A stretch of 64,000 bases of DNA from a virus (IMGVR_UViG_3300033121_000823:19348-83347), one strand, 5' to 3'; shown: positions 1-62,905, counted from the stretch's first letter. A program made the numbers and translations. Notes: generated by a model from the sequence alone, not told the origin.

Positions 1-275
1 TCAATTATTTCAGTTGCAAACGCCGTTAATTCACCATTCATATCGCTCTCATGGAAGGCATATGTTTTATATCCTAAGTTTTGGACATATACAAGAGCCT
101 TCCTAAGTTTTTCTTCCGTCTTTTCACCAAACATAATGATGTATGGATGAACGTCGTAGGTTTGGTCATTCATGACTTCAACTATAGCATGTCCAGCCTG
201 GACAGCTTGTTGTGGCCCCGATAAATCTCTTCTTACGAATACGTATAATGTTGGTTTGTGCTAACATTCTGACAT
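1..275 (-). CDS. PTH2-like peptidyl-tRNA hydrolase, partial (runs off the window start); in-frame TAG at codon 5 (+261..263)
   Basis: Minus-strand RBS GAGGTG then ATG at 275..273, codons M-S-E-C-TAG. The frame then continues HKPTLYVFVRRDLSGPQQAVQAGHAIVEVMNDQ..., which matches the PTH2 motif VVRxDLxMGxGKxAAQxxHA and has no alternative start before that motif. Confidence 0.45.
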
Positions 276-286
276 AGAATTTCACC

Positions 287-607
287 TCATTTAAGATATA
301 TCTTTAAATCCTCTAATTCTTCATCTGTTAATGTTTTCAATAGTTGAAGGATTCGTTTGTCCTTGTCTGATTCTATATAGTCAATTTTAATTGGTGTTGC
401 AACATAGTTGTCTAATAAATATACTACACCGTCAACTTCTACTACTTTTCTAGCTTCTACCGGAGCAAGTCCACAAAAATATCCCTTCCCCTTAGAAAAG
501 AATTCTGCATCCTTCTTAGTAGAGAAGAAATGTGTAGGAATTCCCCTACTTCTATCATTCTCTTTTGTATATACGGCGTAAACTATTTTTATTTCATGAT
601 ACATCAT
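287..607 (-). CDS. hypothetical protein
   Basis: 106 aa ORF, TGA stop, tightly packed with neighbours. Confidence 0.5.
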   Translation of the reverse strand: MMYHEIKIVYAVYTKENDRSRGIPTHFFSTKKDAEFFSKGKGYFCGLAPVEARKVVEVDGVVYLLDNYVATPIKIDYIESDKDKRILQLLKTLTDEELEDLKIYLK

Positions 608-3349: not shown

Positions 3350-3538
3350 CTATTTTAAAACCTTTTCGACGTAAAATTTAAGTGATGCATGTGCTTCCTC
3401 TTTAGATGTAAACACATGAAGTGCTCCTAACATACCAGTTTCATCAAACCACACGTATCCATCTTTATCACACATATAATCCTCTATTCTTTCCCCAACT
3501 TTTACCTTATATACATGAGGTAATTCTGCCTTTTCCAT
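3350..3538 (-). CDS. hypothetical protein (TAG stop)
   Basis: 62 aa ORF; stop is TAG at 3350..3352. Confidence 0.4.
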   Translation of the reverse strand: MEKAELPHVYKVKVGERIEDYMCDKDGYVWFDETGMLGALHVFTSKEEAHASLKFYVEKVLK

Positions 3539-3822
3539 TGTTAATCTCCAACATTACATTCTTAAATTTGAGTGAACCCTTCGTATGAGGGTTATTCGGT
3601 GTTTGTTTAGTAGAGAAAGAAACATTGGCGAATTCTACTTCTTCCAAGTAAAATGTTTCGCCGCCCGTCTTAACTACCCACATAGGGATTGTCGGGTCTT
3701 CTAAGTGTTTCTTGTTAAAGTGAAATACTAGTTCTTTGCAGTGCTAGAGCATTTAAAAATCCATATTGTTAGAGGAGTGAATTCAACTGTAGGTTATACC
3801 AATTAATATAACATCATACGAG

Positions 3823-6506: not shown

Positions 6507-7181
6507 ATGGAATTCCTCCACGGAATAAAAGATATATTAGTTGGGATATTCGGTCCTACAGCCGTCAGTATACTTTTCGTAAGTATAGGGCTCATAATAC
6601 TTTACAAATTCTTGAAGCCAATACTTATATCTATCTGCTCTACAGCATGTAGTTTGAAAAACCGCTTCGTAAATTTACTATCCATTACTGAACAATTCCA
6701 GAACAATCATGGGTCATCCATGAGAGATGCTATTGACGCAATTCATAGCAATGTAATTGACATTAAGAGGGATATAAAAATAATTGACGGCCGAACTACT
6801 ACTATTATGAGTATTATTGGCGACAACCAAATGTCTGTAGGCATGTATGAAACAGATAAGCATGGTAACTGTATCTTCGTTAACGGACGGTGGACAGAAA
6901 TTACTGGAATGTCGATTGATGATGCCCAATCATATGGATGGGTAAATTCTATACATCCAGACGATAGAGAAAAGGTACAAGAAAATTGGGATTATGCTCT
7001 TAGACACTCATCTAAATTCGATATGATTTATTCTATAATAAACATTAAGACACAGAAAACTACCAAAGTCAGAGGATATGCACTACCAATAAAAAGTACC
7101 GACAATTCAGTTATAAGATTTGTCGGCGCTTTAATAGTTATGTCTTGTACTGTATGTCCAGTACATAAGACTACTGGATAA
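6507..7181 (+). CDS. membrane-anchored PAS-domain protein
   Basis: Two N-terminal TM helices then a PAS-like core (GMYETDKHGNCIFVNGRWTEITG ... WVNSIHPDDREKVQENW); only sizeable plus-strand gene in the first 18 kb. Confidence 0.5.
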   Translation: MEFLHGIKDILVGIFGPTAVSILFVSIGLIILYKFLKPILISICSTACSLKNRFVNLLSITEQFQNNHGSSMRDAIDAIHSNVIDIKRDIKIIDGRTTTIMSIIGDNQMSVGMYETDKHGNCIFVNGRWTEITGMSIDDAQSYGWVNSIHPDDREKVQENWDYALRHSSKFDMIYSIINIKTQKTTKVRGYALPIKSTDNSVIRFVGALIVMSCTVCPVHKTTG

Positions 7182-8385
7182 TTCGCTTGTCCTGACCTTC
7201 CAAAATATATCTTGGGCGACCAGAGAAATCAGTAAACTGAGTTGATGGTGGAATGTCCATATGATTTAGGATTGTACTTAGTAAGTTTACTGGGTAATAT
7301 GGTTGTCCCTTTATTTCAAAGGCATTTCTATCCATTTCACCGATTACACCACCAGTGTATTTTCCACCAGCTAACAGTAAAGGCACGTTTTTTGCCCAAT
7401 GGTCGCGGCCAGCATCCTGGTTGATTGGCGTTCTTCCAAACTCAGTAGAAACGACTACCATAGTAGTCTCTAGCAATCCACGTTCCTTCAACTCGTTGAT
7501 GAGGGTAGATAATGCCTTGTCTACCTCTGGGACTAACCGTTCCATTCCATCTTTTATATTGGAATGCATATCCCAACCGCCGTGTGTAACCGTAATAAAG
7601 CGGGAACCTCGTTCTACTAACCTTCGAGCCAGCAACAAGTTACGTCCAACATCAGTATTGCCGTACGCGAAACGTACATTCTCAGACTCCGCTTCAATCT
7701 TAAAAGCTTCCGATGAAGACCCGAACATAATATCAAAAGCTTGCTTTTTATGTTCATCGACAATCTTCAATCCGTTAATAGAAGAAAAGTTAGTGTCTAA
7801 ACTTTTTAAGACTTGGTGCCGCTGAGTAAAGCGTTCTACCGGAATATTTATGGCGAGATTCTTTTTACCTTCCGAATCTATTGTGAAGGGGTTATTTTGG
7901 GCACCTAGATAGGCCGCGTATAGGCCAGTCATACGCGAATTAGATACATAGTTTGGAATGCCATCGCGGCCGTTCGCCCCATACATCTTATTCACAACAC
8001 TTCCATATGAAGGATGTGTTTGGGCCGCCCCTTGATTTTCATCATTAAAGTTATAACCCGTTGATACCCATACACTTCCGCCTTGATGGCCAGCATTTTG
8101 GTGGCTAAAATTGTGGACTAACGTATAATCGTTGAATTGACTAAGATTATTCCATACGCCGCCCAAATATCTTCCATCTTTTGTTTTAACGTATCCATTT
8201 ACGCTCTTATAGCGGTCAATAGCATCTGGACTAGCATTAAAACTTTCAGCGTGGGACATACCACCAGCTAGAAATAGGAAAATGATACTTTTTTGGTGGT
8301 CTTTAGTGGCCGAGCCGACTAAATTGGGTAATCCAACCGCACTTAGCCCAAGTGCTCCACTTTGTAGGAATGTTCTTCTTAGCAT
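7171..8385 (-). CDS. DUF1501-family protein with twin-arginine signal
   Basis: N-terminal MLRRTFLQSGALGL is a TAT motif; FLAGGMSHAESF and C-terminal TEFGRTP...GRDHW...LAGG match DUF1501 hallmarks. Confidence 0.7.
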   Translation of the reverse strand: MLRRTFLQSGALGLSAVGLPNLVGSATKDHQKSIIFLFLAGGMSHAESFNASPDAIDRYKSVNGYVKTKDGRYLGGVWNNLSQFNDYTLVHNFSHQNAGHQGGSVWVSTGYNFNDENQGAAQTHPSYGSVVNKMYGANGRDGIPNYVSNSRMTGLYAAYLGAQNNPFTIDSEGKKNLAINIPVERFTQRHQVLKSLDTNFSSINGLKIVDEHKKQAFDIMFGSSSEAFKIEAESENVRFAYGNTDVGRNLLLARRLVERGSRFITVTHGGWDMHSNIKDGMERLVPEVDKALSTLINELKERGLLETTMVVVSTEFGRTPINQDAGRDHWAKNVPLLLAGGKYTGGVIGEMDRNAFEIKGQPYYPVNLLSTILNHMDIPPSTQFTDFSGRPRYILEGQDKRIIQ

Positions 8386-8809: not shown

Positions 8810-9518
8810 AACGTAAAACGTATTTATAGGTTAAATATCCACAACTATAAAGCAAATCATAAGATTCTGCTATATTTCTTACTTTTACTAATTGTCCACA
8901 CGTATATGTATAATATGAATTCTCATACTTTACCAAATGTTTATCACAATATCCTTTGTTGAAATCAGTCATAAAGGAAATTATGAGACAGTCGGATGTT
9001 TTAACTAACAAATTCTTAATAGTCTTATCCGTTAAGTGCTGGCACACATTGAATATAACGGTAGTAGCATCTTTTGGCAAGTCTGACGGCAAGTTCTTTC
9101 CGTCATATAGTTCAGTTCCTAGGGTTCGAAAGACAACATCAAAACCCCAATAGTCAACACTATGCGGAATAAACTTTTTAAGTGCTCCATAGCCACAACC
9201 AATGTCGATTACAGTTTTTGGATTAACCTTTGTCAAAAATGATGGAACTTCCATATCTTCCATCAACATCCTATTCATAGTATTACACTTATCTATATCG
9301 CCAGTCATTCCACCGCCAACTATTGACGAACTATCAATTTTAGCAGCGGCCGTCCAAAATTCTTTAAATGAGAAAGAGTCGTCATCTTGATTTAGTGCAG
9401 ATAGATGCTTTTCAGTCACTCCATTTGTTTTCAACATGTTAAAATATTCTGTATTTGAAGCGGCGTCAAATATACCAATTTCATCTAATTCTTTCATTAG
9501 AAAACTCCACGAGAACAT
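8763..9518 (-). CDS. SAM-dependent methyltransferase
   Basis: VIDIGCGYGAL matches motif I; 251 aa. Confidence 0.55.
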   Translation of the reverse strand: MFSWSFLMKELDEIGIFDAASNTEYFNMLKTNGVTEKHLSALNQDDDSFSFKEFWTAAAKIDSSSIVGGGMTGDIDKCNTMNRMLMEDMEVPSFLTKVNPKTVIDIGCGYGALKKFIPHSVDYWGFDVVFRTLGTELYDGKNLPSDLPKDATTVIFNVCQHLTDKTIKNLLVKTSDCLIISFMTDFNKGYCDKHLVKYENSYYTYTCGQLVKVRNIAESYDLLYSCGYLTYKYVLRFDGMVCMLCSRGKDA

Positions 9519-9724: not shown

Positions 9725-10179
9725 AATTCCTCACTAGTCATAACGTCCTTAGACGTTTTATACTTTAAAACTTGTCGTGCATTAGCTATAGAGTCTTCCA
9801 AATCCTTCAATTTTTCAAGGATTGGCCTGCCATCCTTATAAAAAAGCTGAAAGGCTTCGCATAAAACGCTATGCGTAGCTATCCATTTTACGAGAAAGCT
9901 TTCACTCGTTTCGGAGGAAAATGAAGCAAGCCCCGGCGAAAGAATCTTCATCATCTTATCAAGGAATACCCGCTCATCCTCACGAATTTCCATCTTTTTA
10001 CTTATATAGCAGTTAAGAAGTTCTTCGGCATTTATCAGTTTTCCATGGTAGAAATTCATAGTTTCAGTAAGCTTTTTTACATTCTTTTCTATGTCTTCAC
10101 GCTTACAGACATGTTCTACATTATTAAACATATCGGATGTAATATTAACATCACATATATCACATAGTATTAGACACAT
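9706..10179 (-). CDS. hypothetical protein, paralog of 10609..11079
   Basis: Shared N-terminal C-x-C...H-x-C..ED motif and conserved KW..(I/A)..(V/I) helix. Confidence 0.45.
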   Translation of the reverse strand: MCLILCDICDVNITSDMFNNVEHVCKREDIEKNVKKLTETMNFYHGKLINAEELLNCYISKKMEIREDERVFLDKMMKILSPGLASFSSETSESFLVKWIATHSVLCEAFQLFYKDGRPILEKLKDLEDSIANARQVLKYKTSKDVMTSEELCLKSI

Positions 10180-10556
10180 CCATAACCCCCTATACCAATT
10201 TTTAAATCATCTTGCAGTGTTGCTGTAAGCCCAAGTTTATTAAAGTTAAATATAAGAATCCAAATATCTACGTATACTTCATCACAAGCATAAGCATCCA
10301 ACTTGTAGAGTTCTGGCACTTCAATACCATTTTTCACAGCAAACTGTCCGATTTCAAGCGAAATTACATTATCTTCATAATCATTACAATAGTTAGTAAT
10401 ATCAAATCCGCTTTCTTTGACGCCGCTTATATAAGCCTTCTTAATTAATGATTTTGTAATTTTTCTTTTAAATTTATCTTCAATATCAACAGAAAATGTA
10501 CTAGTTTTTCCGTGACCATCATTAGATTCATCGCCGACAATTAAAGTAATAACCAT
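10170..10556 (-). CDS. hypothetical protein
   Basis: 128 aa ORF. Confidence 0.4.
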   Translation of the reverse strand: MVITLIVGDESNDGHGKTSTFSVDIEDKFKRKITKSLIKKAYISGVKESGFDITNYCNDYEDNVISLEIGQFAVKNGIEVPELYKLDAYACDEVYVDIWILIFNFNKLGLTATLQDDLKIGIGGYGCV

Positions 10557-19452: not shown

Positions 19453-19455
19453 AAG

Positions 19456-19529
19456 TTTCACTAGTTGGACTCGAACCAACGCTGTCGCGGACTATTAATC
19501 CCGCCGTTCTACCACTGAACTATAGTGAA
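19456..19529 (-). tRNA. tRNA with 8-nt anticodon loop (ATTAATAG), identity unresolved
   Basis: Acceptor TTCACTA/TAGTGAA, classic D-arm GTTC-AGTGGTA-GAAC, T-arm GTTGG-TTCGAGT-CCAAC, anticodon stem GCGGG/CCGC(T). Confidence 0.45.
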
Positions 19530-21485: not shown

Positions 21486-21550
21486 ATAATACATAAGTGA
21501 TTGTTATCTTGAGTAATTAGCTACTTTACTCTCATCCAATGTTATGTAAG

Positions 21551-35473: not shown

Positions 35474-37447
35474 TTACTTACTATCTATCATACGAACATA
35501 ATTTTTAACGGCAGGCGTCGTATAATTCGACGCACTAACATATTGAAGCATAGGATATAATTTTTCTATCTTATCGTTCAATGTTTTAACTTTAACTTTA
35601 GCATCATCAACCTCTTTAATTTTTTCACTAAAGAAAGATTGATACATGTCATATAGATACTTATAGTCACTATCGTAATCTAACGACTTAATTATATCTA
35701 TTTCATCCTTCGAAAGGTTCTTTGACGGAGTATTAAATAGATTTCTATTTAGTATAGGATATGACGCATCAATTTTGTAAAGATTATTCTTTAATATTGT
35801 ACGAGTCTCATCTTTTAAATAATCATCAATATGAGTCCATCCAGCATTCTTTGCAGAATCTATTAGTTTTGATTTTAGACCAAAAATTGAGTCTAATACT
35901 GCTGAACAATTGTTCAGTTGCTTGATAAGTCGTGACATTGAATACCAATTCATCTTCGCATTTTTAATATCAAAACCGTGTAACTCGCAGTATACACCCT
36001 TTTTAGTAAAATCTATCGTTTCAGATACCCAACTTTTAGTTATATACGAACTTTGTTGATATCGCATTCCTTGCGAAGTTTTTGCTCTAGCTACACCTTT
36101 CTTTCTAGTTGGCTGATAAGTAACAGAACTTATTGGAAGTATAATTGAGTCATCACAACCTAGAGCATTAATGACAGACTGCTTATCCTCAAATAGATAA
36201 GCGGCTTTTCCAGTATTTGCTACATAATTGCGTAGACGGACTACTGACCCCTTCTTCTTAATAGCTGCTAAATCATCATAAAAAATGGTAAATTCTTGAT
36301 TTAGAGATATATATCTATGATTAACAGTAATCTTCGTATTTGAAAAATTCTTATAGCATTTACGACAATCATTAACTGATAAAGTAAATCCTGAGTCAGG
36401 AAATAATTGCTGATTATTATATTGAAAAGCTGAAACATTCAATATTCTTTGCAAAGTATAATCAAGCTTAGAATAATACTCAATGAATGTTAGACGCGAT
36501 TCATATAAGTTTTTACTATTCTTATAGGACTCAGATGCCATATTCTGAATAGAATTCTTAACCTTGTTCAAGGTATTCTCTATGAATGCTATAGTCTTAG
36601 CGTCATAGGATAAGCCCTCGCGAGAAACTTCAATTGATACATCTCCAGTTTCTACAAAAATATCTATTCCGGCAGAAGTAATAGCATTATTTATGCTATG
36701 ATTTACTACTGGATATGCAACTGATGCCATAATAATGCGGCAGCCAGTACCATCGCCCTTTCTAATACCCCAATTATCTTTCTTTAAAGAATATTCGGGA
36801 TTTACAATATTCAATTTATTTCCAACCATCTTTGGCTTAACAGTAAAATACTTATATAAGTCTGTTGCCCTATTAGCAAATGCTGATTCATCACCACGAA
36901 CAGTTGGAAAGCTAATCTTTACACCACTTCTTTCCGGCGAATGAACTTCGGAAAGTAGAGATAATGACGGAACTCCATCCTTGTTTAGGAAGGCTCGCCA
37001 TTCATACTTAATACCATTATACCAACTTGTAATATTGAATGTTCGTGTATGATATGAGAATGGTGTTTTCGACCCAAGTCCAAGACATCCATTAAATAAG
37101 TTAGAATTATCCTTACTAGACATTCCGTATGTGCTGAATACTTTTTGAATCGTTTCTTTGGACATACCAGTTCCAAAGTCGCGAATGTAAAATTCTGGCA
37201 TACTCCAAGTGGGGATATGTACCTCAAAAGCTTCAGCAGCGTTTCCATTTGCTATATGACTATCAAGAGCATTTGTACTTAGTTCACGGATGCAGGCTCG
37301 AATCTTATCAGAATATAATCCATCCGACAAAATATGGAACATTTTCGGCCCCATACTTATGGAGAATGTACTAGTTTCAAATGTATCGTCGTCTAAATTT
37401 ACGACTCTATTACCTTCATTCAATAACTTCATTAGAATTTTCCTCAA
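35474..37447 (-). CDS. rIIA: rIIA
   Basis: [38 protein letters not shown] aligns with T4 rIIA [47 protein letters not shown] also shared; 657 aa. Confidence 0.85.
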   Translation of the reverse strand: [657 protein letters not shown]

Positions 37448-60068: not shown

Positions 60069-60348
60069 GCTACTACAAAAAGAAAGTAGTGATATAGCCA
60101 AATAGAAGAATAGCAAATGTTACAATATTTAGAGCTGTTAGCTTTACACACGTTGGGTATTTTTCATCATTGGGAATAAATTTCAAATTCGCTAAATTTA
60201 GAATTAACATGATTCCATACGCCTGAGGAAATGTCAACAAGGCAGTTCCAAAAGTAGTTACAATGAACCACGCCCATAAAAGCTTGAATGTAAGAGCCTA
60301 GAACATTCCTGTCAAAATAGCGTAAACAAAACTTCCAAAATGTGCCAT
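60069..60348 (-). CDS. small membrane protein with in-frame TAG at codon 17 and TAGTAG terminator
   Basis: RBS AGGAGAATTAAG-ATG, then MAHFGSFVYAILTGMF-TAG-ALTFKLLWAWFIVTTFGTALLTF... (74 more hydrophobic codons), ending TTG TAG TAG. No ATG/GTG near the start of the downstream part. Confidence 0.4.
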
Positions 60349-62789: not shown

Positions 62790-62833
62790 GTTTTTTCTCT
62801 ATTAACTTTTGATAAATCTGAATAATCGCGAAG

Positions 62834-62905
62834 TGTCTCTACTAGGACTCGAACCTAGATTTTGGGATTTAGAGTCCCTCGTATTTCCAATTATACGATA
62901 GAGAC
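62834..62905 (-). tRNA. tRNA with anticodon CUA (putative amber suppressor, or sense-UAG decoder)
   Basis: Perfect acceptor GTCTCTA/TAGAGAC, D GTAT-AATTGGAA-ATAC, anticodon stem AGGGA/TCCCA with loop CTCTAAA (C32 U33 C34 U35 A36 A37 A38), T-arm CTAGG-TTCGAGT-CCTAG. Confidence 0.5.

Follow-up and report, generated by a model that had tools for sequence, protein, structure and literature searches.

Position 1 of a 64,000-nucleotide stretch of viral DNA (IMGVR_UViG_3300033121_000823:19348-83347; its full length is called the window here) falls within a minus-strand gene for a PTH2-like hydrolase whose fifth codon is an amber stop. How could a frame that closes so early yield an enzyme, and why would a phage keep it in this form? 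Based on a comparison of 139 non-redundant relatives, drawn from IMG/VR, GenBank phages, GTDB contigs and metagenomes, we consider it likely that the phage's own suppressor tRNA gates synthesis of the hydrolase, and that output scales with the activity of this tRNA. We hold any account of the physiological purpose of this gating with less confidence.

The window contains the 5′ 91 codons of the gene (1..275, minus strand), which were identified by translation, with a family profile, and by AlphaFold2 modeling and Foldseek. A Shine-Dalgarno (SD) sequence, GAGGTG (288..283), stands 7 nt ahead of the leader start codon ATG (275..273) and overlaps the stop codon of the upstream open reading frame (ORF). 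The ATG opens an M-S-E-C leader, and the in-frame TAG follows as codon 5 (263..261) with C as the next base: the minus strand reads GAGGTG-N7-ATG TCA GAA TGT TAG CAC AAA CCA ACA TTA TAC GTA TTC GTA AGA AGA GAT... Past the TAG the frame translates as HKPTLYVFVRRDLSGPQQAVQAGHAIVEVM... and is cut off by the window edge at position 1. Its C-terminus, ...TEIIERTEDLKRFQLLK with TGA as the stop, comes from L085, an identical contig in another data set, which completes the gene as an earlier note on this DNA had proposed. The full gene has 104 sense positions including the TAG, with the last 14 codons and the TGA lying past window position 1.

The earlier note had also described the M-S-E-C leader behind a ribosome-binding site, with TAG as codon 5 and no ATG, GTG or TTG between the TAG and the conserved motif, and all of this is borne out by the sequence. 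Its spacing needs correction: VFVRRDL begins seven codons after the TAG rather than four, and the family block x-Y-V-F-V-R about five codons after. The first in-frame ATG, GTG or TTG past the TAG encodes M35 (173..171). Because M35 lies beyond the R-x-D...Q-x-x-H-A motif, a start at this position would remove the conserved core, and the public gene calls P0001 and P0003 use exactly this late start.

The leader stop is conserved across the family. Among the 139 unique relatives, 116 have a TAG leader, consisting of an ATG and one to eight codons with the TAG directly ahead of the core, and five have a TGA leader. In the first set examined (77 IMG/VR loci, the GenBank loci and the window, giving 69 unique sequences), 33 genes have a TAG immediately before the core, an ATG at most seven codons upstream of that TAG, and no ATG, GTG or TTG between TAG and core. 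A further 19 have the TAG leader and also some such codon ahead of the core; the remainder comprises four TGA leaders and 13 ordinary starts. TAG thus accounts for 52 leader stops in these 69 genes and TGA for 4, while TAA does not occur (0). The arrangement was replicated in 13 of 14 GTDB contigs, most of them from metagenome-assembled genomes (MAGs) of Gemmataceae or Planctomycetota, and in 51 of 56 new unique metagenome loci, one more of which has a TGA leader. Searching GenBank phages with tblastn recovered relatives in many jumbo phages with the same leader arrangement in their DNA, including Acinetobacter phage ME3 (ATG ACT TAG ATT), Yersinia phage fHe-Yen9-04 (ATG TCT CAC TAG ATT), Cronobacter phage GAP32 (ATG GCA CAA TAG AAT) and the 595-kb uncultured phage LR756511 (ATG ACT CAC TAG GTT). 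The HD-domain::PTH2 fusions of Stenotrophomonas and Xanthomonas jumbo phages open with M-x(1-3)-TAG as well.

Close relatives of the window gene (85-93% protein identity) keep the TAG and the codons that follow it while the length of the leader changes, as in ATG CGT TAG (M-R-TAG) of L087/L088; it is therefore the stop that is conserved, and not the leader peptide. Alignment of the orthologues, a check suggested in the earlier note, revealed no conserved start downstream of the TAG, and the ATG-x(1-8)-TAG leader is kept. As a control, other frames in approximately 1.2 Mb of flanking phage DNA were searched for an ATG, one to five codons, a stop and a long open frame without an early start. This pattern occurs at background rates (TAG 26, TAA 34, TGA 36), and by this crude criterion there is no enrichment of TAG leaders on other genes near the module within these flanks.

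Such a distribution bears directly on whether the TAG might simply reflect a pseudogene, or an error of sequencing or assembly. A lone in-frame stop at the 5′ end does resemble a nonsense mutation, and GenBank annotators have left the gene out or shortened it. However, more than 115 independent sequences from four collections share the stop despite their high divergence (30-45% protein identity), the frame downstream is intact and obviously constrained, and the window TAG appears identically in the independent assemblies L085, L086 and L109. We find this explanation hardly credible.

TAG is used selectively in these genes. The terminal stop of the family gene (n=67) is TGA in 32 cases, TAA in 32 and TAG in only three. 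A second in-frame TAG lies within the enzyme in L013/L014/L018, L016, L036, L011 and L035, in a surface loop after the H-A-x-x-E helix and about 40 codons past the leader TAG, and L075 combines a normal ATG start with an internal TAG only. The family genes with an internal TAG end in TGA or TAA. In E. coli, amber suppression is favoured by a purine on the 3′ side, and the base after the leader TAG (n=52) is A in 35 genes, G in 15, C in 2 and T in none; the window has the rare TAG-C.

If the TAG is to be read as sense, a tRNA has to decode it. The window encodes 17 tRNAs, one of which has the anticodon CUA and is proposed to decode TAG (62833..62905, minus strand; found by ARAGORN, with an Rfam tRNA score of 62.5 bits against a gathering threshold of 29). 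This tRNA has G1-C72 and A73 and no long variable arm. Across the family, a suppressor tRNA is present in the flanks of 47 of the 64 loci with adequate flanks, within less than 1 kb in 29 of them. It is on the same strand as the hydrolase gene in 45 of 47 cases, typically 30-400 nt upstream or downstream, and is often the sole tRNA in 20 kb. Among the GTDB loci, 12 of 14 have one. The anticodon also matches the stop: the pairs are CTA-TAG in 35 cases, CTA-TGA in one, TCA-TGA in two and TCA-TAG in none (Fisher p = 0.004), and further pairs from the metagenomes are all CTA-TAG (19/19). L052 provides a clean opal case, in which AAGGAG-N7-ATG AAG TGA GTT... has a tRNA-TCA 252 nt upstream. The presence of tRNA-CUA in the window and this family-wide linkage to suppressors with matching anticodons support the proposal, implied in the earlier note, that the TAG is read as a sense codon.

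In L053, the single locus examined in this respect, no terminator-like site was found on the same strand between the tRNA and the gene, an arrangement compatible with their co-transcription. The suppressor tRNAs are heterogeneous across loci, and the window tRNA-CUA has no close paralogue among the other 16 tRNAs of the window that could represent its parent. As the stop lies in an unconserved N-terminal leader, the identity of the amino acid inserted at the TAG would be irrelevant to the enzyme, which fits the heterogeneity of the suppressors.

Linkage to a suppressor persists in members without a leader stop (L009, L048, L062, L068, L078 and L081, and L091 with tRNA-TCA), so the tie between tRNA and hydrolase looks functional and not only regulatory. 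In L091, a 385-kb metagenomic phage contig, the family gene (10001..10363) has an ordinary start and no in-frame stop, and a tRNA-TCA (9092..9164) lies on the same strand about 840 nt upstream; here, the linkage of tRNA and hydrolase exists without the lock that the leader stop would provide.

Expression of the hydrolase could in principle do without a suppressor, if ATG-x-TAG were a separate mini-ORF and the enzyme were made by re-initiation or from a non-canonical start immediately past the stop (such as ATT, ATC or CTG). ATT is a rare bacterial start codon and the commonest codon after the TAG (15/52, with ATC adding two), and a canonical start lies between the TAG and the core in 19 of 52 genes. 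In contrast, the codon after the TAG is CAC in the window and GTT, GTA, AAC, AAT or ACC in many loci, and second TAGs occur in mid-gene. The SD sequence, too, serves the leader ATG: an SD-like motif stands 3-12 nt ahead of it in 41 of 56 genes, whereas the first alternative start after the stop has one in only 1 of 22. Moreover, re-initiation gives no reason for the stop type to follow the anticodon of the neighbouring suppressor, or for the stop to be TAG and never TAA (52:0). We therefore judge re-initiation to be an unlikely route to the enzyme.

A related candidate, in which an initiator-like suppressor uses the TAG itself as a start codon, was rejected as unlikely. The window tRNA has a paired 1-72 position and lacks the three G-C pairs by the anticodon loop, and an in-frame ATG stands ahead of the TAG almost everywhere.

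A phage tRNA-CUA and in-frame TAGs in at least two to three window genes might also indicate a reassigned code, with TAG as sense (table 15) throughout the genome or in large blocks of it, as in crAss-like and Lak phages; indeed, public gene callers have applied table 15 to several short family contigs. Coding density, like the ORF statistics, speaks against this. The window scores 0.85 with code 11 and 0.86 once TAG counts as sense, and in all 60+ loci the density is 0.70-0.97 under code 11, with no meaningful gain from reading TAG as sense. Because the code-11 density is normal in every locus, we conclude that there is no global recoding. TAG also terminates approximately 8-10 window genes (with no enrichment of backup stops after these terminators), and isolated phages with the module are annotated under the standard code. 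This makes wholesale reassignment highly improbable.

Suppressor-dependent gating is thus the reading that we prefer, and comparison of the loci establishes its premises: that the leader stop is conserved, that it matches the anticodon of the co-encoded suppressor, that the ribosome-binding site is placed to serve the leader ATG, and that the protein has a PTH2 fold. According to this model, ribosomes would initiate at the leader ATG, and at the leader stop, release factor 1 and the charged phage tRNA-CUA would compete. Without the suppressor, translation would terminate after a di- to penta-peptide and no hydrolase would be made. With charged tRNA-CUA, a fraction of ribosomes would decode the TAG as an amino acid and go on to translate the enzyme. 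The amount of hydrolase made would then depend on, and rise in proportion to, the activity of the suppressor relative to that of release factor 1. The termination product would be a harmless oligopeptide, making failed attempts nearly cost-free.

The leader alone, comprising an SD, an ATG, one to four codons and a stop, has the anatomy of a minigene, and this raises the possibility of a system resembling lambda bar, in which the leader generates or senses peptidyl-tRNA drop-off while the enzyme is expressed independently. Very short ORFs promote peptidyl-tRNA drop-off and are toxic when Pth is limiting, and with a Pth-like gene downstream a sensing loop is conceivable. Nevertheless, the mini-ORF runs straight on into the enzyme frame, for which at least 33 lineages offer no separate start, and a minigene leaves both the matching suppressor tRNA and the internal TAGs unexplained. 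Since the enzyme frame continues in phase directly past the stop, we do not take the leader to be a stand-alone minigene, and consider such a system very unlikely. A minigene layer could, however, operate alongside gating, if slow termination at very early stops were to favour suppression.

Several observations weigh against suppressor-dependent gating or limit its reach. In the window itself, the tRNA-CUA is not adjacent to the hydrolase gene but 62.6 kb away from it. The covariation of TGA with TCA comes from two loci, one of which (L045) is ambiguous owing to an ATG after the TGA, and one locus with a TGA leader (L165) has no suppressor on its 7-kb contig. For the 19 of 52 TAG-leader genes in which a canonical start follows the TAG and precedes the core, expression does not strictly depend on read-through. 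As the window still ends about 8-10 genes with TAG, any suppression must be partial. Read-through itself, and the reason why a hydrolase should be the gated gene, are inferred from comparative evidence. Finally, the replacement of a lysine by glutamine in the G-K-G-K loop of the enzyme means that peptidyl-tRNA hydrolase activity proper is not assured.

To what extent, then, is the gated protein a PTH2? In a Pfam search of the TAG-read translation, the assignment holds for the family but falls short for the window protein alone, which scores 13.8 bits (91-aa fragment) or 13.6 bits (99-aa full core) against a threshold of 23; even so, PTH2 is among its top Pfam matches. Of the 33 aligned family members, 31 match PF01981 (PTH2), with a best E-value of 2.7e-11, and the member from LR756511 exceeds the 23-bit gathering threshold with 27.8 bits. 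When the family profile was compared with the PDB, the significant matches were to Pth2 only (24bt_A, 3.8e-7; 2zv3_A, 6.2e-7; 1rzw; 1q7s/Bit1; 1rlk; 1wn2). An AlphaFold2 model of the hydrolase built from 78 sequences has a pLDDT of 96.6 and a pTM of 0.87, and the best 13 Foldseek matches to it in the PDB are all Pth2 structures (TMq 0.72-0.81, probability 1.0), after which there is a sharp drop. The PTH2 assignment of the earlier note, which failure in a profile search would have undermined, therefore stands at the level of both profile and fold.

The predicted α/β fold is shared with archaeal and eukaryotic Pth2 (PF01981; for example M. jannaschii MJ0051, 2zv3; A. fulgidus AF2095, 3erj; human PTRH2/Bit1, 1q7s; TM 0.72-0.81). 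Both groups have the R-x-D-L...(A/V)-Q-x-x-H-A motif, a T-A-x-A strand and a length of approximately 100-115 aa. HMM alignments to 2zv3 and 24bt also reveal differences: the loop after R-x-D-L is two residues shorter in the phage family, and the column of the conserved Pth2 G-K-G-K lysine is a near-invariant glutamine. The Pth2 active-site aspartate column, at the (E/R)-D-A-G site, is an invariant glutamate. In work on S. solfataricus Pth2, the G-K-G-K lysine and the aspartate were reportedly found to be catalytic. Unlike Pth2, moreover, the family is phage-borne and has a stop-locked reading frame. At the family level, profile and model point firmly to a divergent PTH2-fold hydrolase that forms a distinct clade of the superfamily, whose enzymes hydrolyse the ester joining a peptide to the tRNA 3′ end. 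In view of the Lys-to-Gln and Asp-to-Glu replacements and the shorter loop, we class it as a PTH2-like member of the superfamily, and not as a canonical Pth2 enzyme.

As to purpose, we favour a coupling of suppression with the handling of tRNA esters, in which the hydrolase may act either as a clean-up enzyme or as a governor. In the former case, the hydrolase dose would track the load of peptidyl-tRNA and stalled ribosomes that arises from read-through. In the latter, the enzyme would act on the suppressor's own ester and cap suppression, so that a phage with the standard code could retain a suppressor to serve a small number of private TAG genes. Given the Lys-to-Gln replacement and the existence of a TAG-locked HD-domain partner (described below), we lean slightly to the view that the substrate is an altered one, connected with the 3′ end of tRNA. 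More tentatively, and as a proposal that we think more likely wrong than right, the suppressor tRNA and the stop-locked hydrolase may form a self-contained, horizontally mobile key-and-lock circuit, in which the hydrolase, made only by way of the suppressor, acts on tRNA esters that this suppressor generates or carries and thereby caps suppression. This circuit would sustain a sparse private sub-code and might be a stepping stone to full TAG reassignment. If this were true, a standard-code phage could run a few TAG genes without poisoning its own TAG-terminated genes, and the two further candidates in the window and the HD-domain partner of GAP32-like phages would be examples of such a sub-code.

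The first of these further window genes encodes a small protein (3507..3752, minus strand) and also has a leader TAG: it opens ATG CTC TAG(3746..3744) CAC TGC AAA..., or M-L-TAG-HCKELVFHFNKKHLEDPTIPMWVVK..., and its protein has the pattern ...VFHFNKKHL..PMWVVK..FSTK.TP.NPHTKGS... Homologues in L067, L076 and L042, where the gene lies directly downstream of the PTH2-like gene, have normal starts and a conserved (I/V)-(I/V)-F-H-F/Y-N-K block; in the window, this block lies upstream of the first in-frame ATG, GTG or TTG. The other candidate, a small membrane protein (60073..60348, minus strand), has an SD of AGGAG and a TAG at codon 17 (60300..60298), and its alignment with an annotated 97-aa homologue from Pseudomonas phage vB_PsaM_M1 spans the TAG. 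This gene itself terminates in TAG-TAG with another TAG three codons later, which would be odd if TAG were suppressed, and it is a weaker candidate for a TAG-read gene than the other two. Other window candidates were discarded: those with TAA leaders at 35476, 33615, 17601 and 14673 are spurious, with ordinary starts nearby, and a TAG candidate at 21523 overlaps tRNA genes.

In GAP32-like phages, codon 47 is a conserved in-frame TAG in an HD-like gene that overlaps the PTH2-like gene's 3′ end; its context is ELD(T/S)G-TAG-GDS (L071, 10318..10884, and L061, 10318..10884; Pectobacterium phage CBB and Yersinia phage fHe-Yen9-04). In RAS14, Xoo-sp13, XacN1, L041 and L083, this HD module is fused N-terminally to the PTH2-like domain. 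The HD-domain partner gave marginal HD/HDIG matches only, and no function was assigned to it. Conserved protein neighbours are otherwise weak and patchy, with an HNH endonuclease in 13 loci and a small protein in nine, and the suppressor tRNA is the only strong partner of the hydrolase gene. The small protein is encoded just upstream of the PTH2-like gene (for example in L027, L038, L040, L043, L046, L049 and L062) and has the motif ...F..AF+......D...YN.lRG.....GF.P...; in three other loci (L077, L079 and L080) the hydrolase apparently has it as an N-terminal fusion.

Further features of the window phage and its relatives were recorded in passing. Directly downstream of the PTH2-like gene, just past window position 1, lies a tRNA with anticodon CAT (L085, 2575..2645; L086, 980..1050; L087, 1120..1190), and an HSP20 gene is next. 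Some tRNA-like genes have an 8-nt anticodon loop to which ARAGORN assigns a four-base anticodon: 'taat' in the window (19455..19529, minus strand; loop ATTAATAG), 'ttaa' in close relatives (L086, 3496..3568; L087, 3643..3716) and 'cttc' in L165 (990..1063). They could be frameshift or ochre-type suppressors, or mis-folded predictions. Megablast and blastn comparisons of the window with GenBank phages gave no matches, so it has no sequenced close relative there. The window also encodes a DUF1501 protein with a twin-arginine-type signal (7171..8385, minus strand; 244 bits), which, together with the Gemmataceae and Planctomycetota MAG contigs among the relatives, suggests a planctomycete-like host for this phage group.

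The leader stop has obscured the family in public data through a systematic annotation error, which leaves the gene absent, truncated or furnished with an artificial Gln. It is missing from the GenBank records of Yersinia phage fHe-Yen9-04 and Ralstonia phage RsoM2USA, and probably also from those of Serratia phage BF and of several Erwinia phages, in which no annotated feature covers the tblastn match. In the GAP32 and ME3 annotations it is truncated, and PHROGs holds only a 77-position fragment family, phrog_34073. Where table 15 was applied to short contigs, public entries read M-L-Q-I... or M-T-Q-I... although the DNA has TAG (L089, 277..600; L090, 397..726; proteins P0027, P0058 and many others). 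The Q of these database proteins is an artefact of that translation table and was rejected as evidence for Gln. Other public entries lack the N-terminus, having been called from a start within the Y-V-F-V core.

More broadly, a natural and widespread single gene that is stop-locked to a co-transmitted tRNA would constitute a minimal regulatory circuit, and one that ties stop suppression to an enzyme of the peptidyl-tRNA and tRNA 3′-end economy. It hints at how a phage may live with a suppressor of its own and possibly at how the reassignment of stop codons gets under way. The pairs of tRNA and leader might also serve as ready-made orthogonal parts for synthetic biology.

Elements of this system have precedents. 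Iyer et al. 2021 (PMC7824862) had already described PTH2 genes of jumbo phages and proposed peptidyl-tRNA hydrolysis in ribosome rescue; a phage PTH2 is therefore not new in itself, contrary to the earlier note, which had called it unusual. Theirs is probably the same gene family as ours or one that overlaps it, but neither 'suppressor' nor 'stop codon' occurs in that survey (0 occurrences each), which describes no leader stop and no link to a suppressor. Our search of the full-text literature, with subscription-only papers outside its scope, likewise found nothing that connects a hydrolase, whether PTH2 or another, with a leader stop or with the suppressor tRNAs of phages. A phage PTH2 is known, as is the reading of in-frame stops by a phage suppressor in recoded phages, whereas a widespread lock-and-key pairing of suppressor and hydrolase in standard-code phages appears to be new.

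Synthesis of RF2 from prfB, a translation-factor gene, depends on the decoding of an early in-frame UGA, and its output reports the competing activity. By analogy, synthesis of the hydrolase described here would depend on how an early in-frame stop is decoded. The two differ in that prfB uses a +1 frameshift as bypass and feedback on RF2 itself, while for the hydrolase we propose in-frame reading by a dedicated tRNA, with feedback unproven.

In recoded phages (crAss-like, Lak and Agate), a suppressor tRNA reads in-frame TAG or TGA while the host code is standard, and a role for the stop codons as a regulatory gate has been proposed (Borges et al., bioRxiv 10.1101/2021.08.26.457843). Recoding there extends to tens to hundreds of mostly late genes, and the code-11 density collapses. 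Here, by contrast, the phages use the standard code and still end genes with TAG, and the lock is found on one recurrent gene and a few others, at codons 2-9 and usually with the tRNA adjoining.

A further comparison is with the standard-code jumbo phages that have orphan suppressor tRNAs, a group in which Atu_ph07 is placed together with XacN1 and RsoM2USA. For XacN1, no targets could be identified for its two tRNA-CUA genes (PMC5852040), and for RsoM2USA no specific target of its tRNA-CUA was named (PMC8504454); the published analyses considered only the regions downstream of annotated stops, or counts of TAG triplets (PMC5852040, PMC8504454). Both phages have, alongside their tRNA-CUA genes, a family member with a leader TAG. 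In XacN1 this is the HD::PTH2 gene, which opens GAGGA-N8-ATG AAG TAG and is annotated from a later ATG, and in RsoM2USA it is the unannotated gene AAGGAG-N8-ATG TTG TAG ATT. The stop-locked hydrolase would thus give the orphan suppressor tRNAs of such jumbo phages a first client gene that is both recurrent and conserved.

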